The translations under genes and the position numbers were made by a program. From contig SCTI01000002.1 in NCBI GenBank assembly GCA_004297735.1, forward strand, positions 417,578 to 481,577: DNA of 64,000 bases. Reading direction: 5' to 3'. Below the pieces are notes generated by a model. It had not been told where the DNA came from. It saw nothing but the letters and a program-made list of their open reading frames with translations, and made no database searches. Below, piece after piece: positions 2,170-45,699 of this stretch (its first letter is position 1; the number at the start of each line of letters is the position of its first letter). Source of the DNA: Patescibacteria group bacterium. GTDB taxonomy: Bacteria > Patescibacteriota > Saccharimonadia > UBA4664 > SCTI01.

Positions 2170-3687
2170 ATGGAGATTTTGGTATTGTTGGCTGGCATTG
2201 GGCTGGGGAGCGCCGGAGGTTATGGGGTTCAAACCTATGTTTCGCGCCGCAAGACAGACACGGCGGCATCTAAGGCTAAAGCGTTGGTTGATGAGGCTAA
2301 GCGTAAGGCGCAGGATGTGACGCTTGAAGCCAAGGAACAGGCCTTAAAGATTGCCGAAGAGGCGAAGGCTGAAGAAAAGGATCGCCGTCAGAGACTAAAC
2401 GATTTAGAAACCAGACTGGCTCAGCGCGAAAGCACGCTTGATCGTAAGTTGGATGACTTAGATAAGCGATCGGAGAACCTTCGGGCCAGTGAGGCTGGAC
2501 TGGCGGACTTAAAGGAGGATTTAAAAAAGTTGCGCGCCAAGCAAGAGCAAAATCTGGAAAAGATTGCCAAGCTCAGCCAAAAAGAGGCCAAAGAAAAGTT
2601 GATGAAGATGGTCGAAAAAGATACCAAAGATGATCTGACCGCCCTCATTGCCAAGCTACAGTCGGAGGCCAAAGAACAGGCCGAGGAGGATGGCAGGATG
2701 GTGCTGGTAACCGCCATGGAGCGAATCGCGTCGGAGCAGTCGGCCGAACGCACCGTTACCACGGTTCCGCTGCCTAGCGATGAGCTCAAGGGTCGAGTAA
2801 TTGGCAAAGAGGGCCGCAACATTCAGGCGATTGAGAGGCTGACCGGCGTTGACGTCCTGGTTGACGACACCCCAGGCGTGATTGTGCTATCGAGCTTTGA
2901 CCCAATTCGTCGTCAGATTGCCAGGGTTACCCTAGAGAAGCTGCTGTCCGATGGTCGAATTCACCCAGCTCGAATTGAAGAGGTGGTCGAAAAGGCTAAA
3001 AAAGAGATCGATAAAACCACCAAAGAGGCAGGTGAGCAGGCGGTTAAGGATGCTGGCGTGGTTGGGCTGCCGGTGGAGCTGGTTAAGCTGCTGGGCCAAC
3101 TGCGTTACCGCACCTCGTATGGTCAGAATGTGCTTAAGCACTCGGTTGAGATGGCCAATCTTGCTGGTATGATTGCAGCCGAGGTTGGCGCCGACCAGCG
3201 GGTGGCAAAAACCGCATCGCTGCTGCATGACTTGGGTAAGGCTCTGACTCATGAGATTGAAGGTCAGCATCATCACATCTCGCGCGACTTAGCGGCTAAG
3301 TATGGTTTGGATGAGGCTGTCTGTCATGCGATTGAGGCCCACCATGACGACATTGAGCCAACCACACCCGAGGCGGTAATTGTACGAGTGGTTGACGGGC
3401 TGAGCGGTGCTCGGCCAGGTGCTCGGGGTGACAGTTTTGAAAATTACGCCAAGCGCATGACCGAGCTAGAAAACTTGGCCAACACCTTTAAGGGTGTCCA
3501 AAAAAGCTACGCTGTTTCGGCCGGGCGCGAGCTGCGCGTACTGGTAGTACCAGAGGCAATTGATGACCTAACTGCCATTAAGTTGGCTCGCGATATCGCC
3601 ACCAAGGTAGAGGCAACGCTTAAATATCCAGGCGTCATTAAGGTTAATGTGATTCGCGAAACTCGTGCCATTGAGTACGCCAAGTAG
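2170..3687 (+). CDS. rny: Ribonuclease Y (N-terminal TM, coiled coil, KH and HD domains)
   Basis: N-terminal TM MEILVLLAGIGLG, KH motif VIGKEGRNIQAIE, HD motif LLHDLGKA...HH. A GGGAGGG RBS lies 5 nt before the ATG at 2170. The ORF track starts the frame at 2110. Confidence 0.9.
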   Translation: MEILVLLAGIGLGSAGGYGVQTYVSRRKTDTAASKAKALVDEAKRKAQDVTLEAKEQALKIAEEAKAEEKDRRQRLNDLETRLAQRESTLDRKLDDLDKRSENLRASEAGLADLKEDLKKLRAKQEQNLEKIAKLSQKEAKEKLMKMVEKDTKDDLTALIAKLQSEAKEQAEEDGRMVLVTAMERIASEQSAERTVTTVPLPSDELKGRVIGKEGRNIQAIERLTGVDVLVDDTPGVIVLSSFDPIRRQIARVTLEKLLSDGRIHPARIEEVVEKAKKEIDKTTKEAGEQAVKDAGVVGLPVELVKLLGQLRYRTSYGQNVLKHSVEMANLAGMIAAEVGADQRVAKTASLLHDLGKALTHEIEGQHHHISRDLAAKYGLDEAVCHAIEAHHDDIEPTTPEAVIVRVVDGLSGARPGARGDSFENYAKRMTELENLANTFKGVQKSYAVSAGRELRVLVVPEAIDDLTAIKLARDIATKVEATLKYPGVIKVNVIRETRAIEYAK

Positions 3688-3690
3688 CAT

Positions 3691-4515
3691 TTGAGTCAAA
3701 AAAGCGCTACAGTAAAGCCCATGAAGATTTTGTACGTTGGTGATATTACCGGCAAGCCAGGGCGGGAGACAGCTCAGGCGGTATTGCCAGATTTAATTAA
3801 AAAGCACAGCGTTGACTTGGTTATCGCCCAGGGCGAAAACGTTTCTCATGGCAAAGGTTTGCAGGTTAATCATGCCGATGAGCTAGAGCAGGCCGGCATT
3901 CAAGTTTTTACTGGCGGCAATCATTCGTTGATGCGACTGGATGCGCTTAGTCAAAAAGCTAACGTAATTCGCCCTGCTAATCTGACCGAGGGTACACCTG
4001 GCAAGGGCTACACTACCGTTGAGACCAGTTTTGGAACGGTGCTGGTTGTGAGTCTGCAGGGGCAGATCGTGGGTCGTGATGCCGACAAAGAGGTGCTCAA
4101 CCCGTTGACGACCATTGATCAGATACTGGAGCAGCACCGTGGTCAGAAACTGGCTGCAACCATAATTAACTTTCACGGCGACTACTCCAGCGAAAAGGTG
4201 GTGATTGGGCAGTATCTTGATGGCAAGGCCACTGCGGTGATTGGCGACCATTGGCATGTACCAACGGCCGATGCCCAGGTTCTGCCGGGCGGCACAGCTC
4301 ACATTAGCGATGTTGGAATGGTGGGTGCCCTGGACTCTTCGCTGGGGGTGGAGACTGATATTATCGTTCAGCGCTGGAAGAATGCCGAAACAAAGGTGCG
4401 CAACGAAATGGAAGAAGGCGGTCGCCGTCAGTTTAACGCAGTGTTAATCGATGTTGACACCTCAACCGCTTTGGCGCGATCAATTGAATTGATTCGCCAG
4501 GTTATCCCCGCATAA
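3691..4515 (+). CDS. ymdB: YmdB-like metallophosphoesterase (2',3'-cyclic nucleotide phosphodiesterase, TIGR00282 family)
   Basis: MKILYVGDITGKPGRE...VIAQGENVSHGKG...NFHGDYSSEKV. It is the conserved partner immediately downstream of rny. The probable start is the ATG at 3721. Confidence 0.85.
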   Translation: MSQKSATVKPMKILYVGDITGKPGRETAQAVLPDLIKKHSVDLVIAQGENVSHGKGLQVNHADELEQAGIQVFTGGNHSLMRLDALSQKANVIRPANLTEGTPGKGYTTVETSFGTVLVVSLQGQIVGRDADKEVLNPLTTIDQILEQHRGQKLAATIINFHGDYSSEKVVIGQYLDGKATAVIGDHWHVPTADAQVLPGGTAHISDVGMVGALDSSLGVETDIIVQRWKNAETKVRNEMEEGGRRQFNAVLIDVDTSTALARSIELIRQVIPA

Positions 4516-4519
4516 TTTG

Positions 4520-4795
4520 TTAATCTATAAATAAGCGCCATCTTGAGTCTGGCGGCAGCTTAGACGAAAATCTTTTTATTAAAAAATATATTACTATCCA
4601 TCCTGCAATAAAAACTCCCAGGGCTAATAAGCTTGGTGGCTCACCATTAACTCGACCGTCGATTAAGTAATGTACAAGGAATGAGAGAATAAGAGCTGCG
4701 ATAGCTGAAAGATAATAGGTCTTCCTGTAGGACTCCCTATGTATCGCTATTCGTGTCTGTCGAACATCTTCTTTTTTAGTAGATGACATACTCAC
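4520..4795 (-). CDS. Small hypothetical membrane protein
   Basis: 91-aa ORF with two hydrophobic helices (LSAIAALILSFLVHYLI, LALGVFIAGWIVIYFLI). AT-rich. Confidence 0.4.
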   Translation of the reverse strand: MSMSSTKKEDVRQTRIAIHRESYRKTYYLSAIAALILSFLVHYLIDGRVNGEPPSLLALGVFIAGWIVIYFLIKRFSSKLPPDSRWRLFID

Positions 4796-5489: not shown

Positions 5490-8400
5490 TTGGAAGACAA
5501 AAGCTTGCAACAACCTGGACTGACAGGTAGTCAACCCCAGCGAACATCTGGCCCGCCTCAAACGGGTGGTTTAGTGTACCAAAGCGACATTACTCGACCG
5601 CAGCAATTATTGGGCCAACAGGTTGGGGGATTGGCGCAGTCGTTGGGCGCACCAGAACCGTCTAGCGTACCGGCGGAGTCAAGTGTTGCGCCTGAAACGA
5701 CGCCAGCAGTATCAGAGCCTGAGGTTGAAAGTAACCCAGAACCAACTCCCATTCCGGTTACCAACGATGTAACTCCACCTCCAGTGGCAGCTGATCCCGA
5801 ACCTACTCCAGCGGTTGCCGCGCCAGAACCGGTAGCTGGATCCTTAACCGGCGCCCTGGGTTCAGCCGAGGCAATTTCGCCACCGCTACCACCAGCCAAA
5901 TCCGAGGTTGCCAGCCCCTCGCCGACCGGTCCGTCGCGCCCCCGCCTGGGCCGTTTACGAATTGTACTTATCTTGCTGGTAGGACTGTTAATTATTGCCA
6001 TGCTAGCCCCGATTGCTTATCTGGGTTTTGCTAATTTACGCTCTAAGTCGGGTAGCGCTAATAACAAGGTTAATGGGGACTATACCGTTACCACCATACC
6101 GCTAAACGACTTGGTTAAAAGCGGGGACATTTCGTTTGATGCTTCGCGGCGAGTAAACATCAACGGCCAGCTTAAGATTAATAACTCGTTTGTGCTGACG
6201 CCTTCAGATACCCCTGACAATCCGCTGATTGGGCAGTTTTACCTTAACAACCAGAACACCACGCTGTACTACTACAACGGCAACTCATTTGTCGACTTAG
6301 TGACCGGCACACAGCTGGCGCAACTGACCACTACCGTAAATCAGACTCAGGCAATTGCCAATCAGGCTGCCTCCCAGACCATAACTTTGCCTCAAGACTT
6401 GGCAGTGACCGCCACACCAACCTTTGCCGGGTTGAATTTAAGTCAGCCGCTACCAATTGCAAGTGGCGGTACCGGAGCAACTACCGCAGCAGGTGCGCTT
6501 ACAAATCTTGGGGCGGCAGCTAGTGGCGCTAACAGCGACATCACCAGCTTGAACGCGCTGACTGCAATCAGCCCAACTACTGGAGTAACCTACCAGTTTG
6601 CGCCAGCAGTTGCCGGCACCTACGACCTGTGTTCGACCGCGGGTAACTGCGCTGGTGTGGGTGGTGGTGTGACAACCATCGGAGGCACTCCTGGCAGAAT
6701 TGCCAAGTTTAGCGCCGCCCAGGGCATTGTTGACTCGCTGTTGAGCGAAAGCGGGAGCACTGTCACCGCTAATGGAGATCTGGCTGTGACCGGCGGCGAT
6801 CTGGATTTGGGTAACGGAGTTAATCTTGATAGCGCGGTGGCCGATAGTCTGCATGTTGACGCCTCGCTGAACGTGGAAGGTACAATAACCAGCTTCTTGC
6901 AGATCTATTCATCTGAAAGTATTGTTGCGCGAAATGGGTCGAGTAATAAGGTGAGGATCGGTAATGTGGGTCCAAGTAATGAGGCGGGAATTACCTTTAG
7001 TAGCCTGGAGGACGTTAGTATTTACCGCAGTACGGCCGGTACGCTCAAGACCAACGGCAACTTCATTGTTCAGCCAGGTACGAACTCAACCACGGCTTTC
7101 CAGGTTCAAAATGCGGCTGGTACCAGTAACCTACTGGTGGCGGACACTACAAATACGCGCATTGGTATTGGGACGGCGGGGCCAAACTACACCCTAGATG
7201 TTGACGGAGACATTAATACCGGCAGTACCTACCGGATTAATGGAACCTCAATCTGTATATTGAGTGGCTGTGTGCCGTCTTCTGGGTCAAGTGCTTACAT
7301 TCAGAACGGCACGGTGCCGCAAGATGCCAACTACTACTTGCGCAGTGCCGCCGCCAACCAGATCACCGGTATACTGCAGGGCGCGGTTGGCCAGACGGCT
7401 GATCTGATTCAACTACGTAATCAAGCGGGCGGAATTGTTACTAGTGTGGGGGCTGACGGTAACGCTACCTTTACCACCACCAGCAACTCGGCGACCGCCT
7501 TCCAGATTCAGAATTCCAGCGGCCAAAATCTACTGGTGGCCGACACCAGCAACCAGCGATTGGCAATTGGCCCAGCCGCCTCACCGGCAAACAGCGTGTT
7601 GACTGTGGGCTCAAACACGACCGCGGCTAGCGGGGGAATTACTTTTGGGACCGATACTAATTTGTATCGTAGTGCCGCTAATCGGCTAAAGACCGACGAT
7701 AGCTTACAGGTTACAGGTGCTGGTGCATTTGGGAGTTCAGCAACCATACACGATATTGGTGCTATCCGGTCAACGATCAGCGCATCCGAAACCTATAGTG
7801 ATGCTTCCGCAGCAAGCTACATAACTGGCATTGATAATGAGTTGCATTTGAATTCTGACGCTAACGCCACGACCACAATCACGGGTATAGGTAACAGCGT
7901 TTTTCTGAATGGCTCCGGGTCTTACTCTAACTCTGCTGTATCGAGTCAAAATATTCTTTATAACTATAGTACTTCTGCCAGCGCATTAACTGGAGTTGAT
8001 AATAGAGTGGTAAACGAAGGGGACGTGGGCACGGCAATCGGGGGCTACAACGTGTACTCCACAAGTTATGGCACCACCAATCTTGCTCAAGGCTTGGTGT
8101 CGCAAATTTTAGCCACCAGTGAGGCTAATATAACTTCGGCTACGGGGGTATCGGCCGGTATTTCGAATCTTGGAACGGGTACCATAAACAACGGCTATGG
8201 CCTGCTTGTTACAACTGCGGTTAATTCGGGTGGTGGTGTCTTCCAAAACAACTACGGTATGTATATACAAGACCAGTCAGGGGTCGGTTCAACCAATAGC
8301 TACAACTTGTATTCGGCTGGGGTGAACGCAAAGAACTACATTGCTGGACTGCTCCAAGTTGGCACAACCAGCACGCCAACTCAGGCTGGAACAAACTTAC

Positions 8401-9023
8401 TAGCAAGCAATGTTGAGATAGGTGGAGCGTTAAGAGTGGGAGACGCAACCAACAACGTTCAGTTTGACGGAACTACTAAAAAGCTCATCTACAACGGTAC
8501 GGCTCGTCAGAATGTACGAGTGAGTATGAATCCGGAATACCAAGGAGCTGTGTTGACCGGTGATGGCTCGAATAACACCGGCACCATGACCACCGATTTC
8601 TGTTCTGGTTCGTCCCGCCTAAGCATCAACACCAGCGTCTGTGGTGCCACCGATGAGTACAACTACTACTCCTGGATAGGCTCTGGCGGAACCACCGATT
8701 ACGACGTGTATGTGCGCTGGCAGGTGCCAAGTAACTTCTCGGCCTTTAAAGACGCTAACGCAATCAATTTGCGTGGTTGGCGTTCAACTTCGAGCGAAAA
8801 GGTTGAGCTGGCCATGTTCCAGCAAAACGGCACCCAGTGTGGTAGCACCACCGAGGTTAACAGTAGTAACACTACCTGGCAGAGCACCAATATGACCGGC
8901 GACGAAACCGCTTGTAGTGTGAGCGCTGATGATGTGATAACCTTCCGCATTCGACTTACAGCCAGTTCGAGTGGCTACGCTCGGGCCGGATTGTTGGAAA
9001 TTAATTATCTGAGCAAGTTCTAA
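5490..9023 (+). CDS. Giant membrane-anchored surface protein with tail-fibre-like repeats (1177 aa)
   Basis: TTG start with a GGAG RBS. Pro/Thr/Glu-rich N-terminus, single TM (LRIVLILLVGLLIIAMLAPIAYLGF), then a Ser/Thr/Asn/Gly-rich ectodomain. It carries the motif IASGGTGATTAAGALTNLGA and repeated NLLVADT.N.R.GIG...P...L.V.GD units that resemble phage tail-fibre or hemagglutinin repeats. Confidence 0.6.
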   Translation: MEDKSLQQPGLTGSQPQRTSGPPQTGGLVYQSDITRPQQLLGQQVGGLAQSLGAPEPSSVPAESSVAPETTPAVSEPEVESNPEPTPIPVTNDVTPPPVAADPEPTPAVAAPEPVAGSLTGALGSAEAISPPLPPAKSEVASPSPTGPSRPRLGRLRIVLILLVGLLIIAMLAPIAYLGFANLRSKSGSANNKVNGDYTVTTIPLNDLVKSGDISFDASRRVNINGQLKINNSFVLTPSDTPDNPLIGQFYLNNQNTTLYYYNGNSFVDLVTGTQLAQLTTTVNQTQAIANQAASQTITLPQDLAVTATPTFAGLNLSQPLPIASGGTGATTAAGALTNLGAAASGANSDITSLNALTAISPTTGVTYQFAPAVAGTYDLCSTAGNCAGVGGGVTTIGGTPGRIAKFSAAQGIVDSLLSESGSTVTANGDLAVTGGDLDLGNGVNLDSAVADSLHVDASLNVEGTITSFLQIYSSESIVARNGSSNKVRIGNVGPSNEAGITFSSLEDVSIYRSTAGTLKTNGNFIVQPGTNSTTAFQVQNAAGTSNLLVADTTNTRIGIGTAGPNYTLDVDGDINTGSTYRINGTSICILSGCVPSSGSSAYIQNGTVPQDANYYLRSAAANQITGILQGAVGQTADLIQLRNQAGGIVTSVGADGNATFTTTSNSATAFQIQNSSGQNLLVADTSNQRLAIGPAASPANSVLTVGSNTTAASGGITFGTDTNLYRSAANRLKTDDSLQVTGAGAFGSSATIHDIGAIRSTISASETYSDASAASYITGIDNELHLNSDANATTTITGIGNSVFLNGSGSYSNSAVSSQNILYNYSTSASALTGVDNRVVNEGDVGTAIGGYNVYSTSYGTTNLAQGLVSQILATSEANITSATGVSAGISNLGTGTINNGYGLLVTTAVNSGGGVFQNNYGMYIQDQSGVGSTNSYNLYSAGVNAKNYIAGLLQVGTTSTPTQAGTNLLASNVEIGGALRVGDATNNVQFDGTTKKLIYNGTARQNVRVSMNPEYQGAVLTGDGSNNTGTMTTDFCSGSSRLSINTSVCGATDEYNYYSWIGSGGTTDYDVYVRWQVPSNFSAFKDANAINLRGWRSTSSEKVELAMFQQNGTQCGSTTEVNSSNTTWQSTNMTGDETACSVSADDVITFRIRLTASSSGYARAGLLEINYLSKF

Positions 9024-21872: not shown

Positions 21873-23051
21873 ATGAGTAAGACTCAAGGCAGCAGCCGAA
21901 TTTTAGCATTGGATTTATTGCGCGGTTACTTATTGGTGGTTATTTTAATTGACCATTTGGCGCTGTTTCCGGGTGGGTTTGAACTTATAACCGGTAAGGG
22001 CTGGCTGTGGGCCTCGGCCGCCGAAGGGTTCTTTATTATTTCGGGAATGATGATTGGATTGATTCGCGGCAAAGAGTTACGTAAGCGGCCTTTTAACGAG
22101 GTGCGGAACAAAATTTGGCAGCGAGCGGCTCAGCTGTATTTGTGGGCGGTTGGTTTAACGCTGGCCTTTACCGCGATCGGCTTACTCTTTATCGGTCACG
22201 CCGACTTAAAACCCGGACTGGCGGTTGGCCAATCCTGGCCGACCTTAATTTGGCAGTCGCTCAGCTTTCAGTACCTTTACGGGTGGGCCGACTTTTTGTC
22301 GCACTACGCGATCTGTATGGCACTGGCTCCACTGGCGCTGTACGCCTTGCATAAAGGTTGGTGGCGTCAGCTAATTGCCGGTTCGTTACTAATTTGGTGG
22401 TTCCGCGGTAGCAACTTTGTGGCGGCCTGGCAGCTGTTGTTTGCAGGCGGAATGATAGCCGGCTACTATCTTAAACCACTAGAAGCATGGGTGAGCAACT
22501 GGTCATCAATTACCCGTCGACAGGTGCGGCAATCGATGGTGGCGTTGAGCGTCATAACTGTAAGTCTGAGCGTGCTGGTGGTTCATGTCCGGCCATGGCT
22601 ACATCAATCCCCACCGGCGAGCGGCTTAAGCGCTCAGTTGGTTGGCGGTCTGCAAGGTCTAGCCACGCTAACCGGCGACTGGTTCGATAAGCTGTCTTTG
22701 GCGCCTGGAAGAATCTTGATGGCTGCGCTCTGGTTCGCCACCATTTACGTCTTGTTCCGTAAGTACGAAACCGCAATCGATCGTTGGCTTGGCTGGTTGC
22801 TGCTGCCGATGGGGCGCAACAGCCTGTTTGTGTATATCGCTCAAAGTATATTGGTGTTCCTGGTGCCACTGTTTTTGCCAACCACCACCAACCTACTGGT
22901 TAATCTTGGCTTAAACGCGCTGGCCATACTGTTTATTTGGCGAATCACACTGCTGTATAGCCATGAGCAAAAGGCAAAGCAAAGAGCCGACCAGGCCGCC
23001 AACCTCAACCCAGCACCAATTGGTACTACCGGTCTTAATCTGGAATCATAA
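21873..23051 (+). CDS. OpgC-family integral membrane protein (putative glucan/acyl modification)
   Basis: LDLLRGYLLVVILIDHLALFP...ASAAEGFFIISGMMIGL matches the OpgC N-terminal signature. At least 8 TM segments. Confidence 0.55.
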   Translation: MSKTQGSSRILALDLLRGYLLVVILIDHLALFPGGFELITGKGWLWASAAEGFFIISGMMIGLIRGKELRKRPFNEVRNKIWQRAAQLYLWAVGLTLAFTAIGLLFIGHADLKPGLAVGQSWPTLIWQSLSFQYLYGWADFLSHYAICMALAPLALYALHKGWWRQLIAGSLLIWWFRGSNFVAAWQLLFAGGMIAGYYLKPLEAWVSNWSSITRRQVRQSMVALSVITVSLSVLVVHVRPWLHQSPPASGLSAQLVGGLQGLATLTGDWFDKLSLAPGRILMAALWFATIYVLFRKYETAIDRWLGWLLLPMGRNSLFVYIAQSILVFLVPLFLPTTTNLLVNLGLNALAILFIWRITLLYSHEQKAKQRADQAANLNPAPIGTTGLNLES

Positions 23052-30439: not shown

Positions 30440-31783
30440 TCAACGCAACCGGCCGGTGATAGCGCCCCACATTTGTTGGAGCATTGTTAATTTAAATATG
30501 CTGCCAGGACGAGGACGGTCGCCTTCGGCTGGGACATAAAGCCTGAGTGCCTTTGGCAAGCAGGTAACGGTAATTGGAGCGTTGTAGGTTTCGCGTTCGC
30601 CATCAACACCAACTACGATCGAGTAATTGGAGCTGTTAATTTTAAAGCTGGATAGCTCGACTTGTTGTAGGCTGGAGTTTGCGCCATTGTTGGAAAGTTG
30701 TTTAAGTCCAATATTCCGGAGCAGCTGGCGGACCATAGCGTCATCGATTGTTGGTACAACATTAATTTGAAGCACGCCACCATCGAGCTGCTGGCGATGG
30801 CCAAGCTCAAATAAGCTCATAGTGTTGTAGCGGTTGACTCCGATTAAAACCACTACGGCTTGTGAGTACCGCTTTTTACCCATGGTAAATTTTAAATCGT
30901 AAGCCGGTTTTTTGCCGGTTAATAAATCTTGAAGCACATTCCTGGCGGCCTGTATCTTATGGGCGCGGTATTGAGGTTGATCAACCATATCCGCGTAAAT
31001 ACCAAACGAGGCGTTGTTTAAAAATATTCGGTTGTTAATTTTAGCGACATCAATTCTTCGCTCAACCCCATAAAAACCCGCTAGGGCGTCAACCAACCGG
31101 TTCGGGTCCAGACCAATATCGCGAGCAAAATGACAACGAGTTCCGCCTGGTAGAACCACCAGGGGCAGGTTGTTGCTGATCGCGATTTGAGCGATTGCGC
31201 CAATACTGCCATCTCCTCCAGAAATACCGAGCACATCGGCGCCGTCATCAACCGCTGCTTGTGCGAGCTGCTCGATTTTACTTCCTGGCGTGGTGGTAAC
31301 CACCTTTATGCCCTGCTTTTCGGCCGCGGCGGCAAGTCCGGCTTTAACGGCCCGGCCATCGCCGGACTTGGGGTTGATTATTAGAACCGGCTTTTTAAAA
31401 GGAGATTGGCGCTGCGATTCTCCTTGAAGTCTACGTTCTTGCCAATATTGCCTGCGTAAAGCCGCAAATAGACCAGAATAAAATAGGCCCATAATTACGG
31501 TTATGGCCAAAACGCGGGTGTTGCCTGGCTCCCGTGCAAAGGCAACCAGTTCGACTATCAATAAAATAGCGCTAATGCCGGCTAAACCAAGCCCGCCGCG
31601 GAACCGGCCACCATGACCGGTAAACATTAGCCATCCGGCGTACGATAGAACCAGCGTGGTAGCAATAAATAACGACATGAACACTATATTAAAAAGCACC
31701 AAATAAAACAGTGCAAAAAAGGTGAGGAGATAAAAGATTACACCCAGTAAGGCGAGTAGACGCCAGCGTATAGAAAATTGCAT
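30440..31783 (-). CDS. Membrane-anchored diacylglycerol-kinase-catalytic-domain lipid kinase (YegS/BmrU-like)
   Basis: N-terminal TM helices, then KKPVLIINPKSGDG...GADVLGISGGDGSIGAIAQ...PLVVLPGGTRCHFARDIGL. Confidence 0.75.
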   Translation of the reverse strand: MQFSIRWRLLALLGVIFYLLTFFALFYLVLFNIVFMSLFIATTLVLSYAGWLMFTGHGGRFRGGLGLAGISAILLIVELVAFAREPGNTRVLAITVIMGLFYSGLFAALRRQYWQERRLQGESQRQSPFKKPVLIINPKSGDGRAVKAGLAAAAEKQGIKVVTTTPGSKIEQLAQAAVDDGADVLGISGGDGSIGAIAQIAISNNLPLVVLPGGTRCHFARDIGLDPNRLVDALAGFYGVERRIDVAKINNRIFLNNASFGIYADMVDQPQYRAHKIQAARNVLQDLLTGKKPAYDLKFTMGKKRYSQAVVVLIGVNRYNTMSLFELGHRQQLDGGVLQINVVPTIDDAMVRQLLRNIGLKQLSNNGANSSLQQVELSSFKINSSNYSIVVGVDGERETYNAPITVTCLPKALRLYVPAEGDRPRPGSIFKLTMLQQMWGAITGRLR

Positions 31784-37973: not shown

Positions 37974-38267
37974 TTAGTGACGAACTATTCGAATAAGTCT
38001 GAAGACGAGATATATTGCGCCTGTAATAACCACGAGGTCAAATAGGCTAATTATTAGGTTAATAGCCGAGATGATAACAGCGCTTTTAACCACTGGCTCA
38101 GCTAAATTGGTGTAGGCAATAAGTGGTAACGGAAGACCGCCGATATAGTTGGCGGTAGCAAGCCAAGAACTGGTGGCTTCGGGATGATAAAGAATAACCG
38201 ATAATAAAAATACCCCAACCCCAAAAGTAAACGCGCGCTTAAAATTCATTACTTTGTGATGTCTCAA
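37974..38267 (-). CDS. Small hypothetical membrane protein
   Basis: 97 aa, three hydrophobic helices. Confidence 0.4.
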   Translation of the reverse strand: MRHHKVMNFKRAFTFGVGVFLLSVILYHPEATSSWLATANYIGGLPLPLIAYTNLAEPVVKSAVIISAINLIISLFDLVVITGAIYLVFRLIRIVRH

Positions 38268-39063
38268 TATTTAAAGTATGTTGCCCTTCGCCGCCGTGAG
38301 TATGTGGCATGAATACACTGATTAAAACAATAGTGCCGATTCCAACTAAAAAGGGCAGAGTCAACTTGCCGCCACTGTGGCGTCGGTGCTGCAAGTCGGG
38401 AATAATATCGGCGGCGGCAATGTACAAAAACATACCGGCGGCCAGACCAAGTAAGAGGCCTTGAGTTGGCTCGGTAATCTCCCCCACTAGGATAACCATC
38501 ACAGCTCCTAATACAGCGGTAAGCCCAGATAGCCCATTTAAGACTAGAGCCCGCATCTTGCTCATGCCAGCCTTAGTGAGGATGGCGTAATCGGCCACTT
38601 CTTGGGGAATTTCGTGAGCGGCAATTGCCAGAGTGGCGGCAAAACCCAGGGCTGGATCGGCCAAAAAGGCAATCGCAATGGCAATACCATCAACCAAGTT
38701 GTGTAGTCCGTCGCCAACCACAACCAGCCACCCGGCCGGCCGCACGTGGTCTTTGTGAGGGTGACCTGACCCGTCATCGGTTTGAGGGTGGTGGTGCAGA
38801 CGGCTAAACAGACGGTCTAGGTAAAAGAAGGTTACAAATCCAAATAAAGCGGCGTAGAGGGGTGCCGGACTACCTGGATTAGCCTCGATCGCTTCTGGTA
38901 CAAATTGCAGAATGGAACTGGTTAATAAAACTCCGCCGGCAAAGCTCAAAAAGTACAGCTCATGCTGCCTGACCCAGCGTTGCGGAATGGCTACAATTAC
39001 CAAAACCGCAATTAGGCTAACGGCGGTAGTGGCAAGTAGGGCGTAAAGGGCGTTAATGTCCAT
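38239..39063 (-). CDS. ZIP-family divalent metal transporter (ZupT-like)
   Basis: HEIPQEVADYAIL, GLAAGMFLYIAAADIIP, His-rich loop HHHPQTDDGSGHPHKDH. Confidence 0.8.
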   Translation of the reverse strand: MDINALYALLATTAVSLIAVLVIVAIPQRWVRQHELYFLSFAGGVLLTSSILQFVPEAIEANPGSPAPLYAALFGFVTFFYLDRLFSRLHHHPQTDDGSGHPHKDHVRPAGWLVVVGDGLHNLVDGIAIAIAFLADPALGFAATLAIAAHEIPQEVADYAILTKAGMSKMRALVLNGLSGLTAVLGAVMVILVGEITEPTQGLLLGLAAGMFLYIAAADIIPDLQHRRHSGGKLTLPFLVGIGTIVLISVFMPHTHGGEGQHTLNIETSQSNEF

Positions 39064-39087: not shown

Positions 39088-39753
39088 TCAGATACGGTGG
39101 TGTTTCCCTAGCTTGAAGGACAGGTCTAGAATCTTCTGCGCAGTTAAATTTTGGGCCGATACCGGTTGGCCAATTACCACGCTGCACTGGCGAATCCAGC
39201 CACGTTTATGCCATAAAACGCTAGCTGGCAGGATATCGCAGTCAACATTTTGGGCTAGTACTGCAACTCCAGATCTGGCCGGCCTGCCCCGCCACGGCGA
39301 TCGCTTGCCTTCTGGAAAAATAAAAATGGTTTGGCTTTTTAATAGCAATTGTTCGGCAACTCGTAAGCCGTAAGGCAGGCGTTTGTGCTGAAAGGCTGGA
39401 AAGCTACCGCACAGTAACAAAATAATATTGAGTGGAAAAAAGAAAAGGTCGTTAGCGGTAAAAAAACGATACGGCATTAGCTTAAAGTAGGCTCGCCAGG
39501 GCAAGCTGCTTAAGACCAAGAAGTGGTCCATACGACACTGGTGGTTGGACGATATGATTAAGGGGCGGTCACGATTAATATGGGTTGGTTGCCAGAGCGA
39601 TTGGGACTTGCGGACAAACAGAGGCGCGACCATGCGAGTTGGTAGCCAAAGAATGGACTGGGTGATAACCACCATAGCAACAAACCACCGGCTCTCAAGC
39701 AGTGATTCAGGGGCGGGGTCGGTAATGGTGTTTGATTTGCTACGGTTCATCAA
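39088..39753 (-). CDS. PlsC-family lysophospholipid acyltransferase (OlsA-like candidate)
   Basis: SNHQCRMDHF (HX4D motif) and IFPEGKRS (FPEGT-type motif). Confidence 0.65.
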   Translation of the reverse strand: MMNRSKSNTITDPAPESLLESRWFVAMVVITQSILWLPTRMVAPLFVRKSQSLWQPTHINRDRPLIISSNHQCRMDHFLVLSSLPWRAYFKLMPYRFFTANDLFFFPLNIILLLCGSFPAFQHKRLPYGLRVAEQLLLKSQTIFIFPEGKRSPWRGRPARSGVAVLAQNVDCDILPASVLWHKRGWIRQCSVVIGQPVSAQNLTAQKILDLSFKLGKHHRI

Positions 39754-39762
39754 GCTGTTATT

Positions 39763-40542
39763 ATGATCATAGATTTAGAAGCAAAACGCAAACCTCTTAT
39801 GAAGCGACTTTTCTACAGCCGACTGCATCGCCATATCCTGGGTAAGCCCGAGCAGCGTTTGCGATCCTACATTACCGATCACCCTGGCCATCTAGATGCC
39901 GCCCAGCGACTTCATGCCGAGGTTTATTTGGCGAAGGGCTACATTTATGAACAAGATGTTAATGGCGACGGAAAAATAAATGATATAGCTGATCCACATA
40001 AAGACGGTTCAACCTATTTTGTGACCACACGCATAAACGAAGGTGGCAAAGAGGAGGTGGTAGCTTCTGCTCGTCATATTCGTAGTCATAAAAAAGGTGG
40101 TAGTGACCTTCCCCTGCTTCAACAAGCTAGTATTGAGCAAAAATATCGCCAAGAAATTCAGGGTTATCTGCCGTCACAATGTGTAGAGGTGTCGGCCTTG
40201 GTTAAGAGGCGGGGCTTTGGCATGGTGGCTAGCTTACTGCTTTATCGCGAAATGTGGCGACATAGCCGCGATCGAGGGGATAAGCTATGGCTGATGGCTT
40301 GTAGTCCGGCCTTACTAAAGCGACTGCAGCAGCTGTTTGGCTCAACTCTAATCCAGATTGGACCACCCACGCCGTATACCGGTGAAGAAATCATTCCGGT
40401 TATGCTTAAAGTAGAGGAGGGGGAGGCGCGGTTGCGGCGCGAGGCCCGCCGCAGTTGGCATCCGGGGCGACGATTTTTGTATCGCGAGCTACTAGCCTTC
40501 TTTACCGCTGACGATCATTTTTTGCTGAGGCAGTATGACTGA
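39763..40542 (+). CDS. GNAT-fold N-acyl amino acid synthase / LuxI-FeeM-OlsB-like N-acyltransferase (tentative)
   Basis: About 250 aa. CVEVSALVKRRGFGMVASLLLYREMWRHSRDRGDKLWLMACSPALLKRLQQLFG resembles the Acetyltransf_5/autoinducer-synthase core. Divergently adjacent to the PlsC-family gene. Confidence 0.4.
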   Translation: MIIDLEAKRKPLMKRLFYSRLHRHILGKPEQRLRSYITDHPGHLDAAQRLHAEVYLAKGYIYEQDVNGDGKINDIADPHKDGSTYFVTTRINEGGKEEVVASARHIRSHKKGGSDLPLLQQASIEQKYRQEIQGYLPSQCVEVSALVKRRGFGMVASLLLYREMWRHSRDRGDKLWLMACSPALLKRLQQLFGSTLIQIGPPTPYTGEEIIPVMLKVEEGEARLRREARRSWHPGRRFLYRELLAFFTADDHFLLRQYD

Positions 40543-41506
40543 TTGGATGATTGCTTTAGGATTTGCGGTGGCATGGGTTGTTACCTTTAAGCCGGCTTGG
40601 AGGTTGCTAATTCGCTTGGTGGTAGCGGCAAGCCAGCCAGACTTCCGCTTAACCAATGGTCGATTTTGGCTTGATTTTGCACTCTACCGGCTGATTATTT
40701 TTGTTCCTTACGTCATACCGCTAGTATTTGCTAGTAGGCTACCAAATTTATTGGTTCAACTAATATGGGCCTGGATCGGTTTGAGCATTATCGTATCGTT
40801 TGGTCGAATCGTTGGGGTCAAACAACTGGTTTCAGGATTGTGGCAGGTATACGGTTTGGTTTACGACGGTTTACTCAACCTCTATCCTTATCGGCATTTG
40901 CTTGAGCTGACGCGAGACCGGTTAGAACTGAGTAGTGCCAACAGGCTTTTAGATGTTGGTTGCGGTACCGGTAATTTATTGCAGTTGGTCGAGCCGACCG
41001 AGGGTGCAGAATTGGTTGGGGTGGATAGTTCGAGCGTGATGCTGTCGCGAGCTCGGCGCAAGCTGGGCGGAAGAGCCGAGCTGGTTAATAGTGAGCTGAT
41101 TGAGTTTTTAGGTTTACAGCCCGACGCATCATATGATCGAGTGGCTCTAGTAAATGTGGCCTACGCGGTACCGAATCGTGAAGAGTTGTGGCGGCAGTGC
41201 TTGCGGGTGGTTAAGCCAACCGGTCGGATTGTCATGACCACCTCGATCGCGCCGGGTAGTAAGGTGATTGTGCAGGAGCATCTACGCCATGACCGTTGGT
41301 GGCGCCTGCTCCACCCCAAGTTATTAATGGTCGGGCTGGTCGACTTACTAATAAGTGAGCTGTCTCGTTCGGCGGTGTTTGAGTTCCCACCCCAAAAGCA
41401 GTTGATAGGCGAGATTCAACGCGCGGGTGGCCGCTGCAGCCAGATTGAACGCTGCTACGGCGGCCGAGAACAAGGCGTCAACATCATCTGCACCATTACC
41501 CGCTAG
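40535..41506 (+). CDS. Membrane-anchored class I SAM-dependent methyltransferase
   Basis: Three N-terminal TM helices, then LLDVGCGTGNLLQLV (motif I). Its start overlaps the previous gene by 8 nt. Confidence 0.7.
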   Translation: MTDWMIALGFAVAWVVTFKPAWRLLIRLVVAASQPDFRLTNGRFWLDFALYRLIIFVPYVIPLVFASRLPNLLVQLIWAWIGLSIIVSFGRIVGVKQLVSGLWQVYGLVYDGLLNLYPYRHLLELTRDRLELSSANRLLDVGCGTGNLLQLVEPTEGAELVGVDSSSVMLSRARRKLGGRAELVNSELIEFLGLQPDASYDRVALVNVAYAVPNREELWRQCLRVVKPTGRIVMTTSIAPGSKVIVQEHLRHDRWWRLLHPKLLMVGLVDLLISELSRSAVFEFPPQKQLIGEIQRAGGRCSQIERCYGGREQGVNIICTITR

Positions 41507-41533: not shown

Positions 41534-43666
41534 GTGCTAAGCATAAGCTCAATATTGACGGTATTGGTGGTGCTGTCGCTGGTGGTACTGGGCGTTTTTA
41601 CGGTTCAAACCAACCCTCGTCAGCGGGCCAATCAGTATTTTGGCCTAGTCTGTTGTTTTATCACCATTTGGGTGTCTGTAAATTACTTGGCCGACTCAGA
41701 CCCTTCTCGTGCTCTGCTATGGACCCGCCTGGCTTTTTGGTCGGCAGCTCTGGCAATGGGCAGTTTTGTGCTGTTCGCCAACGTGTTTCCTCGGCGCGTA
41801 TTCCGCGGCCGGTGGTTCATGGTGGCGGTGAGCGTGGTAACAATGGGCGCAGCGGTTATTACTTTGTTGCCGGACTTTGTACCCGAAGCGGTGTATGACG
41901 GCACCACGTCTAACGTTATTACCGGGCCACTGTACCCACTATTTATTTGGTACTTTATTGGCTCAATGCTCCTGGCCTTTGCGCTATTGATTAGAGCAGA
42001 GCGCCGCGAACGAGGAGCGGCTCGCGAAAGAGTGCGGTTTGTGTTTGCCGGGGTCTTATTGATGGTGGCAGCCACCTCACTGACCAATCTGTTTTTACCG
42101 TTAATAATTGGATCCAACCCCTGGGCCCGCTATGGCTCATTCTTTACCGTGGCCTTTGTGGCCTTTACCTCATATGCCATAGTTAAGCACCGATTGTTTA
42201 ACGTGCGAGCGGTGGTGGCGCGGTCGGTAGCATACACCTTGCTGATCTTTACTCTCGCTGGTGGTTACAGTCTAGCGGTGTTTGGGGTGTCAATTTACCT
42301 GTTTCCAGAAAACCAAAATAGCTTAGAACAAAATCTTACCTATATTGTGCTGGCGGTGTTACTGGCGGTGACCTTCCAGCCGCTTAAGGCCTTTTTTGAA
42401 CGTGTCACCGACCGCTTTTTGTTCCGTGATCACTACGACAGTCAGGAGCTAATCAACCACCTTGGCAACGTTATGGTGGGTGAGCTTGAGCTGGAGCGGC
42501 TGATGTCTAAGTCACTCAAAATCCTGGGCGAGCACCTTAAGGTGGCGCACGCTCATTTGTACGTCTTTGACGACAACCGAATCTACCGGGTGGCGCACTA
42601 CGGTAGTATCCCTCAGCGACTACCAACCGCTGCCAGGTTGCAGCTGCTACGCCATCGCTTGGCGGTAGCCGACGAGCTGGAGCGAGGTAAAGAAAAGGAG
42701 ATTTTAGAAACCTTTAATATGCGCGTGTCGCTGCACTTAAGAACCAAAGGCGAGTTCGTTGGGTACCTGCTGCTGGGCGACAAACTTAATGGCGACATTT
42801 ACATTCAACAAGACATCCAGGTGCTTGAGATTATTGGGCAGGAGCTGGCGGTAGCCATAACCAACGCCAAGGCCTACGACGAGATTGCTCACTTTAACGC
42901 CACCTTGCAGCAAAAAGTCGATAGCGCTACCGCTCAGCTGCGTTCGGCCAACGCCCGCCTCAAAGAGCTGGACTCGGCTAAGGACGAGTTTATCTCGATG
43001 GCCTCACACCAGCTGCGCACGCCACTTACCACCATTAAGGGGTATCTGTCGATGGTGGTTGAAGGCGATGCCGGCAAGCTTAGCCGACAGCAAAAGGAGT
43101 TTTTGGGGTACGCCTATGACAGCTCTCAGCAGATGTCGAGCTTAATTGCCGATCTGCTTAATGTATCAAGAATGTCGGCCGGCAAGTTCTTTATTGAAAA
43201 AACCGCTACCAATCTAGTTAAACTGGTTGAAGAAGAGGTGAGGCAGCTGCAGTCGCAAGCTAAGACCAAGGGTCTTGAGTTGATCTTTGAACGGCCAAAG
43301 GGTGACATGCCGACGATGCAGCTAGACGATAGTAAGACTCGCCAGGTGGTAATGAACTTTATTGATAATGCTATTCATTACACCAAGGCTGGGTCGGTTC
43401 GGGTGGTCTTGGAGCGGCATAAAAACCAGGTTAAGCTGACGGTGGTCGATACCGGTATTGGGGTGCCGGCAGCGGCTCGGCCAAAGCTGTTTTCTAAGTT
43501 TTATCGTGCTCAAAATGCTCAGAATGTCCGACCAGATGGTACCGGCCTGGGTTTGTTCCTGGCCAAACGGGTAGTTGAGGACCAGGGTGGTACAATAATA
43601 TTTGAGAGTACCGAGGGTAAGGGTAGTACCTTTGGGTTCACGTTACCAATTTCAGAATCTAAGTGA
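41534..43666 (+). CDS. Sensor histidine kinase with large polytopic N-terminal membrane domain
   Basis: About 7 TM helices, GAF-like middle region, H-box SMASHQLRTPLTTIKGY, ATP-lid GTGLGLFLAKRVVEDQGGTI. Confidence 0.85.
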   Translation: MLSISSILTVLVVLSLVVLGVFTVQTNPRQRANQYFGLVCCFITIWVSVNYLADSDPSRALLWTRLAFWSAALAMGSFVLFANVFPRRVFRGRWFMVAVSVVTMGAAVITLLPDFVPEAVYDGTTSNVITGPLYPLFIWYFIGSMLLAFALLIRAERRERGAARERVRFVFAGVLLMVAATSLTNLFLPLIIGSNPWARYGSFFTVAFVAFTSYAIVKHRLFNVRAVVARSVAYTLLIFTLAGGYSLAVFGVSIYLFPENQNSLEQNLTYIVLAVLLAVTFQPLKAFFERVTDRFLFRDHYDSQELINHLGNVMVGELELERLMSKSLKILGEHLKVAHAHLYVFDDNRIYRVAHYGSIPQRLPTAARLQLLRHRLAVADELERGKEKEILETFNMRVSLHLRTKGEFVGYLLLGDKLNGDIYIQQDIQVLEIIGQELAVAITNAKAYDEIAHFNATLQQKVDSATAQLRSANARLKELDSAKDEFISMASHQLRTPLTTIKGYLSMVVEGDAGKLSRQQKEFLGYAYDSSQQMSSLIADLLNVSRMSAGKFFIEKTATNLVKLVEEEVRQLQSQAKTKGLELIFERPKGDMPTMQLDDSKTRQVVMNFIDNAIHYTKAGSVRVVLERHKNQVKLTVVDTGIGVPAAARPKLFSKFYRAQNAQNVRPDGTGLGLFLAKRVVEDQGGTIIFESTEGKGSTFGFTLPISESK

Positions 43667-44103
43667 GGCTAAATATGACTAGAATGAGCAATCCCCAGGA
43701 TAGCCAAGCGCTACCACAGCAAGCCGAACAAAACGGCAAACGCATTTTAATCGTTGAAGATGATCCGTTTATCTCGCGCATGTATACGGCCAAGTTGCAA
43801 ACGGCCGGATTTGTAATTGAACTTTCGAGTAATGGCCGAGATGCTTACGAAAAGCTTAAATCGCAGGAATATGACCTGTTGCTAATGGACATTAACATAC
43901 CGGAGCTAACCGGTTTTGAGGTACTAAAGGCGCTAAAAAATGACGGTCGATCCGACATTGCTAAAAAGGCTATCGTGCTCACAAACTCAGCCAACCCCGA
44001 GGATCATGGCTTGGCAGATCAGCTCGGGGTTGAGTATATGGTCAAGTCTGAGCTGACGCCGCACCAGGTGCTGGAGCGGATCAACCAGAAACTTGGCTTA
44101 TAG
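43663..44103 (+). CDS. Stand-alone receiver-domain response regulator (CheY-like)
   Basis: KRILIVEDDPFI...DLLLMDINIPELTGFEVLKALK...AIVLTN. Overlaps the kinase stop by 4 nt. Confidence 0.85.
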   Translation: MRLNMTRMSNPQDSQALPQQAEQNGKRILIVEDDPFISRMYTAKLQTAGFVIELSSNGRDAYEKLKSQEYDLLLMDINIPELTGFEVLKALKNDGRSDIAKKAIVLTNSANPEDHGLADQLGVEYMVKSELTPHQVLERINQKLGL

Positions 44104-44589
44104 CTGAGTTGTCGGAGGGGTTTGTGGAGGAGTCGGCTGAGTTGGGGCGGCTGGCTGAGCTGGTGTTGCCTGTGCGGCTACCGGACCAACGTATTGGGAC
44201 TTACCGAAGCCGATAATAAGGTATCCGATTGGTGAAAACAGGAAGTTACCCAAGATGCCAAACAAAGCATCTTTACCAAAGGCCTTGGCGGTATCAAGCG
44301 CGATCACTACGGCAATGACGATGTTAACAAACGGGATGAAGAACAGTAGTAGCCACCAGCCCGGGCGACCAATTATCTGCAGCATTACGTAGACGTTATA
44401 AATCGGAACGATTGATGCCCAGCCCGGTTTTCCGGCCTTGGTAAACATCTTCCACATTGCCACAATTGCAACAACGGTAATTGCTACTGCAAAGATAGTC
44501 CAAAACATTAGCATGGCGGTAACAGCGCCGTCTACTTGCGGAGTAGCGGTTGCGTAGCTACTGGTGTCATAGGTAGTAGTTGATTCCAT
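44098..44589 (-). CDS. Hypothetical membrane protein with Pro/Thr/Gln-rich C-terminus
   Basis: Three hydrophobic helices. The motif SIVPIYNVYVMLQIIGRPGWW recurs in a widespread small-membrane-protein family. Confidence 0.45.
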   Translation of the reverse strand: MESTTTYDTSSYATATPQVDGAVTAMLMFWTIFAVAITVVAIVAMWKMFTKAGKPGWASIVPIYNVYVMLQIIGRPGWWLLLFFIPFVNIVIAVVIALDTAKAFGKDALFGILGNFLFSPIGYLIIGFGKSQYVGPVAAQATPAQPAAPTQPTPPQTPPTTQL

Positions 44590-45444: not shown

Positions 45445-45699
45445 ATGGCAAACAAGCTATACGTAGGTAACCTATCCTACAGCATGACCTCAGATGACCT
45501 ACGCGAGACCTTTTCGGCTCATGGTACGGTTCAGTCGGCCGACGTGATCAGCGATCGCGACTCCGGTCGGTCAAAGGGCTTTGGTTTTGTAGAGATGTCA
45601 TCGGACGAAGAGGCTGAGGCCGCCATCAAGGCGCTCAACGGTCAGGACGTTCAAGGCCGTCAGCTGACGGTTAGCATCGCTCGCCCAAAGGCTAACTAA
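45445..45699 (+). CDS. RRM-type RNA-binding protein (RbpA-like)
   Basis: KLYVGNLSY (RNP2) and KGFGFVEM (RNP1). 84 aa. Confidence 0.85.
   Translation: MANKLYVGNLSYSMTSDDLRETFSAHGTVQSADVISDRDSGRSKGFGFVEMSSDEEAEAAIKALNGQDVQGRQLTVSIARPKAN

Follow-up and report, generated by a model that had tools for sequence, protein, structure and literature searches.

A five-gene module in Saccharibacteria-type genomes that looks more like a lipoamino-acid signalling circuit than an ornithine-lipid pathway

Introduction

Autoinducer systems such as LuxM/LuxN, CqsA/CqsS and PhcB/PhcS match a synthase with a membrane kinase; in the PhcB/PhcS/PhcR(Q) system of Ralstonia, methyl 3-hydroxymyristate made by the methyltransferase PhcB is sensed by the adjoining membrane kinase (PMC8578825, PMC11960443), and PhcB and PhcS are established as partners in quorum sensing (PMC8578825). 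Bioactive N-acyl amino acids are known as products of FeeM-type and exosortase-linked synthases (PMC7293339, PMC11072679). Reviews of ornithine lipids treat OlsB/OlsA/OlsF and OlsG; Patescibacteria and FeeM-type synthases do not come up in them. Within the candidate phyla radiation (CPR), Bernard et al. (mSystems, 2020) reported LuxI homologs adjacent to sensory kinases in 18 genomes, including two Saccharibacteria (PMC7567580, Table S4), and proposed these adjacencies, found in silico with LuxI profiles, as complete quorum-sensing candidates with N-acyl-homoserine lactone (AHL) synthases (PMC7567580). Here we analyze a 64,000-nucleotide stretch (hereafter, the window; positions 417,578 to 481,577 of contig SCTI01000002.1, assembly GCA_004297735.1) of a Patescibacteria bacterium whose closest relatives are Saccharimonadales. 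At its center of interest lie five adjoining genes, which encode a PlsC-family acyltransferase (AT), a GNAT protein resembling N-acyl amino acid synthases (NAS), a class I S-adenosylmethionine (SAM)-dependent methyltransferase (MT), a sensor histidine kinase (HK) with seven transmembrane (TM) helices (7TM), and a stand-alone receiver-domain response regulator (RR). An earlier note on this DNA had read the first three as a candidate ornithine-lipid-like pathway. We argue that the module looks more like a chemical-signalling circuit, in which a tailored lipoamino acid is made and then sensed by a dedicated two-component system, a reading to which we assign a probability of about one half.

The locus shares with the CPR survey a LuxI-like GNAT protein encoded beside a sensor kinase, and the idea of a synthase-kinase pair thus has survey-level precedent. 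What sets it apart from the survey tables are its methyltransferase and acyltransferase partners, its gene fusions, a 4-TM partner protein, and the analysis of residues and structure; the word "methyltransferase" is absent from the supplements of that study (PMC7567580), and its LuxI/AHL label does not carry over, since 0 of 84 family members examined here match the LuxI Pfam model. Our literature searches found no paper that pairs Saccharibacteria with a synthase of N-acyl amino acids or FeeM with a histidine kinase, and, in the literature searched, no description of the two recurrent fusion partners of the NAS family, the methyltransferase and the 4-TM domain. The five-gene architecture therefore appears undescribed, as do both fusion partners and the move from LuxI/OlsB to the N-acyl amino acid synthase group. 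With PhcB/PhcS the module has in common, by gene make-up and not by sequence, a SAM methyltransferase and a membrane histidine kinase encoded side by side; PhcB differs in acting on a free 3-hydroxy fatty acid, with neither a GNAT synthase nor a PlsC-like enzyme. The OlsB/OlsA/OlsG, GlsB/GlsA and OlsF systems resemble it in bringing together a GNAT N-acyltransferase, a PlsC O-acyltransferase and a SAM methyltransferase. Unlike the ornithine-lipid pathway, however, the module comes with a kinase and a receiver, and its relatives do without AT and MT.

The five-gene unit and its distant versions

Neighborhoods were recovered for NAS relatives from 100% down to 27% identity, and their genes were assigned with Pfam and by direct comparison with the window proteins. 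The order AT (minus strand), NAS, MT and 7TM HK, together with a receiver, recurs in 14 distinct Saccharibacteria-type loci at 34-100% identity; the unit is found in the window and in the sampled loci L001, L002, L004-L008, L010-L014, L019 and L020, and a few of the 14 locus contigs end inside it. A profile search with a narrower alignment, A4, yielded 5 metagenome loci. The flanks vary, with a ZIP transporter and an M20 peptidase in the close relatives of the window, a Mur ligase and FolD in L002, and cytochrome oxidase genes in L019; the conserved entity is the five-gene unit and not the surrounding region.

In the window (Table 1), the NAS and MT genes overlap by 8 bp (ATGACTGA), a 27-bp gap separates MT from HK, and the HK stop overlaps the RR start by 4 bp, giving junctions of -8, +27 and -4 bp from NAS to RR. 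All reading frames of the earlier note exist where it had placed them, and its NAS/MT overlap and its kinase and receiver directly downstream were likewise recovered. The 8-bp overlap predicts translational coupling of NAS and MT. Elsewhere, the two are fused into a single protein, in L007 (P0023, 485 aa) and in P0048, P0070 and P0087, which were found among the top cluster representatives. Conserved synteny, translational coupling, NAS-MT fusions, and the fact that AT shares the rarity and the contigs of NAS together indicate that AT, NAS and MT are functionally linked, and the earlier proposal that they form one functional cluster thus holds. Because these enzyme classes are linked, an acylated amino-acid lipid is a plausible product. 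In one locus, L020, a 386-aa pyridoxal phosphate-dependent enzyme (Aminotran_1_2 / DegT class; 3631-4791, minus strand) lies between the receiver and AT and may be an additional tailoring enzyme or one that supplies the amino substrate.

Table 1. Coordinates of the module genes, their control region and the alternative partner protein (window numbering unless a locus is named)
Feature	Position	Strand	Length or remark
AT, PlsC-family acyltransferase	39088..39753	-	221 aa
Divergent control region (short)	39737..39798	+	promoter-like element and conserved AAAACGCAAAC box
NAS, FeeM/LuxI-fold N-acyl amino acid synthase-like GNAT	39799..40542	+	247 aa
MT, class I SAM-dependent methyltransferase	40535..41506	+	323 aa
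HK, 7TM sensor histidine kinase	41534..43666	+	710 aa
RR, stand-alone receiver-domain response regulator	43663..44103	+	146 aa, without output domain
4-TM partner protein	L015 7858-8253; L016 6013-6411; L017 7799-8185		between synthase and kinase

L015, L016 and L017, at 27-31% identity, contain neither AT nor MT; their order is an RR gene on the minus strand, NAS, a 4-TM protein and a 7TM-(GAF)-kinase whose sensor is orthologous to that of the window HK, with a receiver in L015 and L017. The 4-TM protein, of ~130 aa, belongs to no Pfam family; PY and APYAY motifs are conserved in it. Of the 149 best cluster representatives, about 32 (for example P0044, P0084, P0092 and P0121) have it fused to the C terminus of NAS, and one has it at the N terminus. 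This obligate, uncharacterized partner may serve as an anchor or an exporter, or it may present the donor. A further version, in a metagenome-assembled genome of Kineosphaera sp. (Actinomycetota; L009, 7038-11651), has neither AT nor kinase, and its NAS-MT pair has an EAL protein on one side and, on the other, a GGDEF-EAL protein with 8 TM helices. The GC content of this NAS-MT region, 61-66% as against 73-75% in the neighboring DNA, suggests that the pair was acquired horizontally, in the phylum that hosts Saccharibacteria. Between the membrane domain of the GGDEF-EAL protein and the 7TM domain of HK, BLASTP found no similarity.

Since distant relatives drop AT and MT yet keep the 7TM kinase, and the Kineosphaera version swaps the sensor type, the constant core across versions is the synthase plus a polytopic-membrane signal-transduction protein, with AT and MT as the tailoring enzymes of one clade. 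That the kinase and receiver outlast AT and MT shifts the probable role from a bulk membrane lipid toward a molecule that is produced and sensed.

NAS as a probable N-acyl amino acid synthase

The earlier note had likened the NAS core to the LuxI/FeeM/OlsB fold, a comparison of which only the LuxI/FeeM part stands. An AlphaFold model of NAS, computed with seven homologues as input, is confident (pLDDT 87, pTM 0.84) and has the FeeM/LuxI-type GNAT fold, extended by extra C-terminal helices at residues ~205-247. NAS scores 17.4 bits against Pfam FeeM (PF21926; E=0.004, cut-off 27), spanning profile positions 1-147 of 158, and 31.4 bits against TIGR03694 (cut-off 111.95), where only the C-terminal third is covered. 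An exhaustive HMMER search returned 476 clusters at E<=1e-3 and 99 at E<=1e-30, far above the family size from a word-indexed search, and the family is defined here as at least 476 sequence clusters. Across 84 diverse members, TIGR03694 matches 70 (best 2.9e-13; E-values only) and FeeM matches 28 at E<=0.01 (best 1e-8), with P0081 reaching 41.7 bits against FeeM. By comparison, the OlsB-type Pfam model Acetyltransf_5 matches 6 of the 84 (best 3.8e-4), each of the NCBIfam OlsB models NF052554 and NF052555 matches a single member (E ~0.003), and Autoind_synth (PF00765) matches none at E<=0.01.

The OlsB/Acetyltransf_5 and autoinducer-synthase profiles proposed as a check in the earlier note were run against NAS itself, which matched none of Acetyltransf_5, NF052554, NF052555 and Autoind_synth at E<=0.1. 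Identification of NAS as an OlsB is rejected on these profile results, as is its identification as a canonical LuxI. Taken together, the profiles place the NAS family closer to N-acyl amino acid synthases than to LuxI. From the described FeeM/TIGR03694 synthases NAS nonetheless differs in its extra C-terminal helices, its CPR host and its partners, namely a methyltransferase, a PlsC-like acyltransferase, a 7TM kinase and a receiver; the exosortase association of TIGR03694 is also missing, with no exosortase/PEP-CTERM family in the gene tables of any sampled flank.

The residues conserved in the family correspond in part to those of LuxI. In the alignment of 84 members, D65, R92 and E130 are the sole invariant positions and S132 is nearly invariant; E130 lies in an E-x-S motif on strand beta-4. 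Because profile searches of the PDB, started from P0081 or from the family alignments A1 and A2, gave nothing relevant, residues were mapped through authentic LuxI sequences, a reference set of six that comprises LasI (100% identical to annotated lasI) and five proteins from annotated plasmid genes. The hhalign comparison of the NAS family profile with this set (probability 71%, E=3.6e-5, 161 columns) pairs D65 with D44, R92 with R70, E130 with E101 and S132 with S103. Among the other positions of the LuxI invariant set compared (R23, F27, W33, D44, D47, R70, E101, S103, R104), F27 corresponds to Y43 and R23 to H39, D47 and R104 are not retained, and the match at W33 is ambiguous.

AT and MT as proposed tailoring enzymes

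The reading of AT as a PlsC-family O-acyltransferase divergent from NAS is well borne out: it matches Pfam Acyltransferase (PF01553) at E=9.4e-10 and contains NHQCRMD (HX4D; N70-H71-x4-D76) and FPEGKRS (FPEG; P147-E148-G149), both motifs being invariant across 11 AT orthologues. Its resemblance to characterized members is distant, with E=1e-3 to Thermotoga maritima PlsC (5kym) and 29.1 bits against the lysophosphatidic acid acyltransferase (LPAAT) model TIGR00530, below the cut-off of 102.95, and nothing marks it as an OlsA, as had been supposed. The likeness to OlsA-type enzymes, a PlsC-superfamily protein with HX4D that divergently adjoins NAS in 14 loci, speaks to how AT may work and not to orthology. 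In block II, the FLDR of PlsC aligns to FPAF in AT, and the family consensus is G-x-F-P-A, with no arginine. The block II arginine of glycerol-3-phosphate acyltransferase (GPAT)/LPAAT motifs is known to bind the phosphate of the acceptor, and its absence from AT suggests a non-phospholipid acceptor. Only 7 detectable homologues of AT were found in 5.8e9 proteins, several of them on contigs with NAS homologues; this rarity and the co-occurrence with NAS argue against a housekeeping PlsC and indicate that AT is module-specific, not the general PlsC of the cell.

MT is, as the earlier note held, a membrane class I SAM methyltransferase. It matches Methyltransf_11 at E=2.7e-15 (Methyltransf_11/12/25 all at about 1e-14 to 1e-15), and a hydropathy scan places 2-3 hydrophobic helices in an N-terminal membrane domain of residues ~1-100; a conserved LWxVYGxVYDGL...PY motif lies N-terminal to the Rossmann core. 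Specific orthologues of MT, at 36-70% identity, occur in all AT-containing loci and in Kineosphaera, and the N-terminal TM domain is present in some loci and absent from others. This domain was compared with the 4-TM partner, of which it might be a diverged form, and proved not detectably related (no BLASTP match; hhalign probability 1.9%, then 6% with 36 sequences). The closest solved structures are MitM (1.7e-9), a bacterial phosphatidylethanolamine (PE) N-methyltransferase (PDB 8ys9; 2.5e-8) and phosphoethanolamine N-methyltransferases (2e-7), which suggests a distant similarity to phospholipid N-methyltransferases such as is reported for OlsG. UbiG, LahSB and others score similarly, O-methyltransferases just slightly lower, and the Legionella PmtA model reaches only 30 bits against a cut-off of 390; the likeness to PE and phosphoethanolamine N-methyltransferases appears to be only of the generic class I level and does not sustain the OlsG-type identity once suggested for MT. 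A single-sequence AlphaFold2 model of MT (pLDDT 40.6) was too low in confidence for use.

The kinase and its receivers

HK matches HisKA_7TM at 43.9 bits (cut-off 28.6), along with HisKA and HATPase_c. A TM scan shows its sensor, residues ~1-290, to be a polytopic 7TM domain with no sizeable extracytoplasmic part; a cytoplasmic middle domain, GAF-like in relatives, precedes HisKA and HATPase_c. Wherever the contig of a CPR-type locus extends as far as the kinase gene, the clade lacking AT and MT included, the 7TM domain is orthologous (29-79% identity). The sensor evolves much faster than the catalytic domain (31% vs 64% identity in L002). In having a polytopic-membrane sensor kinase within the synthase operon, all CPR-type loci with sufficient contig resemble LuxM/N-, CqsA/S- and PhcB/S-type systems.

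RR matches Response_reg at E=3.3e-18 and has no further domain. All CPR-type loci but L016, where none lies within the sampled flank, have a receiver-only gene, placed past the kinase, beside AT on the minus strand, or both; receiver-only regulators stand on both sides of the module in L006, L010, L019 and L020. In L006, a second, soluble GAF-HisKA-HATPase kinase (10068-11465) directly follows the 7TM kinase. The extra receivers and this soluble kinase hint at branched or relay-type phosphotransfer. The earlier note had rightly placed a kinase and receiver next to the enzymes; its view of them as a downstream addition fits less well, since they are the most constant partners of the synthase.

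Proposed mechanism and alternatives

From its fold and invariant catalytic residues, we posit that NAS attaches a fatty acyl group to the amine of an amino acid, drawing on an acyl-thioester donor (acyl-ACP, where ACP is acyl carrier protein, or acyl-CoA) that probably carries a scavenged fatty acid. The membrane-anchored MT would then methylate the NAS product, to give a carboxylate methyl ester or a side-chain N-methyl group; fusions and translational coupling speak for the functional link, and the chemistry is what its class would suggest. AT, tied to the pathway by strict co-occurrence, would O-acylate an acceptor that is not a phospholipid; the simplest candidate is a hydroxyl on that lipoamino acid itself. 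Finally, the 7TM HK, whose association with the synthase is observed and whose ligand is proposed, would detect the hydrophobic product in the membrane and phosphorylate the receiver-only RR, which would not bind DNA but act by contacting other proteins or through a relay. Such a circuit would follow the logic of the synthase/membrane-kinase pairs LuxM/LuxN, CqsA/CqsS and PhcB/PhcS, and we infer its acyl donor, amino acid, methylation site, AT acceptor, HK ligand and output. Methyl esters of N-acyl amino acids (NAMEs), whose structure is analogous to that of AHLs, are a candidate product class for a synthase with a methyltransferase; their producers are Alphaproteobacteria.

Several points weigh against this signalling circuit. 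Every chemical step in it is one that we infer, NAS lies below the curated cut-offs of both FeeM and TIGR03694, and genomic context was sampled in ~18 distinct loci of a family of 476 clusters. A PlsC-type acyltransferase with a membrane methyltransferase is the classic make-up of a membrane-lipid pathway; a doubly acylated product would diffuse poorly; the module of the window encodes no exporter; and RR lacks an output domain, which leaves no transcriptional autoinduction loop to be drawn. Membrane kinases beside lipid enzymes can be homeostatic sensors, as DesK is. To our knowledge, CPR bacteria generally lack fatty-acid synthesis, which bears on the acyl donor, and when the 64 kb of the window were scanned for motifs of ACP, adenylate-forming enzymes, PlsY and CDP-alcohol transferases, none turned up.

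A serious rival, which we judge clearly less probable, generalizes the earlier interpretation without its ornithine label: a regulated membrane aminolipid, in which NAS would N-acylate with a 3-hydroxy fatty acid, AT, likened to OlsA/GlsA, would add a "piggy-back" chain, MT, likened to OlsG, would N-methylate the head group, and HK would read the condition of the membrane and adjust synthesis as DesK/DesR does with des. An N-acyltransferase, an O-acyltransferase and a methyltransferase do fit the two-step logic of aminolipid synthesis plus tailoring (PMC11631085, PMC12971839). AT co-occurs strictly with NAS in the clade of the window, and without the block II arginine it could plausibly use a non-phospholipid acceptor; the best solved relatives of MT include PE and phosphoethanolamine N-methyltransferases, OlsG is reported in the ornithine-lipid reviews to be kin to phospholipid N-methyltransferases; MT is membrane-anchored, and the kinase sensor is wholly buried in the membrane. 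Against this rival, NAS has no OlsB signal (1 of 84 members for each OlsB model, against 70 of 84 for TIGR03694), MT matches generic class I profiles and falls far short of the PmtA cut-off, and RR has no DNA-binding domain for gene control. The clade without AT and MT would be limited to a single-chain lipoamino acid, yet it keeps kinase and receiver, and the actinobacterial version, lacking AT, is paired with c-di-GMP signalling proteins. Mono-acyl amino acids form no bilayers, and the clade without AT and MT accordingly argues for a signal or an effector. As for an ornithine-lipid pathway proper, with no Acetyltransf_5/OlsB match in NAS, no OlsA mark in AT and no OlsG-specific signal in MT, it finds no support in these genes.

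Alternatively, the product could be a secreted lipoamino acid directed at the host or competitors, serving as a surfactant, an antimicrobial or a host-directed effector, with N-acyl tyrosines, stieleriacines and commendamide-type molecules as examples; the two-component system would then control or protect the producer and would not be a cognate receptor. Long-chain N-acyl amino acids of the FeeM/TIGR03694 type are antibacterial or modulate biofilms (PMC7293339, PMC11072679), and the actinobacterial contig holds its homologous NAS-MT pair in an island of lower GC content. Actinomycetota are the hosts on which Saccharibacteria live as episymbionts, a lifestyle that would suit such an effector. 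We nevertheless hold an effector to be unlikely, because it leaves unexplained why a polytopic-membrane sensor is the most conserved neighbor across clades and sensor types, and the module has no conserved gene for export or immunity. Far less probable still is a chance neighborhood in a compact genome, with AT a housekeeping lysophospholipid acyltransferase and MT unrelated: CPR genomes are gene-dense, which makes adjacency alone weak, and AT does fall within the PlsC superfamily, but the same order persists down to 34% identity in 14 loci with different flanks, genes overlap, NAS and MT fuse, and the only 7 detectable homologues of AT all track NAS. Synteny and fusions effectively refute it.

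CPR/Patescibacteria live as ultra-small episymbionts whose biosynthetic capacity is very limited, and the earlier description of the organism as one with a reduced genome agrees with a Patescibacteria/Saccharibacteria-type bacterium. A compact, conserved module of five genes for making and sensing one lipid-like molecule would provide a cloneable handle on how CPR bacteria perceive their partners and their own density. N-acyl amino acid synthases of the FeeM/LuxI fold are usually active in E. coli, so the product should be directly identifiable. If the lipoamino acid is a signal, as we favor, the module would represent a new autoinducer chemistry and a new family of 7TM receptor kinases. We raise more tentatively, as a possibility short of an expectation, that Saccharibacteria and related CPR with NAS, 4-TM protein and kinase use a new class of autoinducer, a methylated and possibly O-acylated N-acyl amino acid made from scavenged fatty acid, which the dedicated 7TM kinase would sense in the membrane and the receiver-only regulator would pass on to a non-transcriptional output (pili, attachment). 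Were this so, the actinobacterial NAS-MT pair would hint at a chemical language shared by symbiont and host, and the pair would be the first genetic model for how methyl esters of N-acyl amino acids are made. If the product is a structural aminolipid, CPR would remodel scavenged lipids into phosphorus-free lipids under the control of a sensor. Either reading corrects the ornithine-lipid annotation and brings into view a family that spans at least 476 clusters and in which fusions to two partners recur, one a methyltransferase and the other a 4-TM domain.

Control region and neighboring genes

The middle reading frame of the earlier note, 39763-40542, is real, whereas its start is probably misplaced. 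NAS most likely starts at 39799, where NCBI places the start and where all close homologues begin; a start at 39763 would add 12 codons, and that ATG falls within a conserved extended -10-like element, TGTTATTAT. The AAAACGCAAAC box is conserved immediately 5' of ATG 39799, where no Shine-Dalgarno sequence is evident upstream, and could be a regulatory or a translation-initiation element. The stretch CTGTTATTATGATCATAGATTT...AAAACGCAAAC is kept in the window, L005, L004 and L001, although the proteins there are only 52-67% identical, and conservation of the 45-60 bp divergent intergenic region in these four loci is well above that of the flanking coding sequence. A promoter scan of the control region detected TTGCTA-16-TATTAT, a promoter-like element that includes an extended -10 TG; sites in the region were no more numerous than expected from shuffled sequence.

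Beyond the module, a DUF5684 membrane protein gene (window 44098-44589, minus strand) converges on the RR gene and overlaps its end, as it does in the close relatives L001, L004 and L005, and a small RRM-type RNA-binding protein of 84 aa (45445-45699, plus strand), present also in L004, is encoded just past it. As their synteny is limited to close relatives, both genes probably lie outside the module. On the other side, the ZIP transporter gene occupies 38239-39063, and a 97-aa hydrophobic reading frame with no family match (37974-38267, minus strand) overlaps its start by 29 bp. Farther away, two adjacent giant reading frames of 1177 and 1540 aa (5490-13646, plus strand), with no Pfam match, sit downstream of a tRNA-Pro/tRNA-Gly pair. 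The other lipid or envelope genes of the window encode a 447-aa protein with a diacylglycerol-kinase catalytic domain (30440-31783, minus strand) and an OpgC/Acyl_transf_3 membrane acyltransferase (21873-23051, plus strand).

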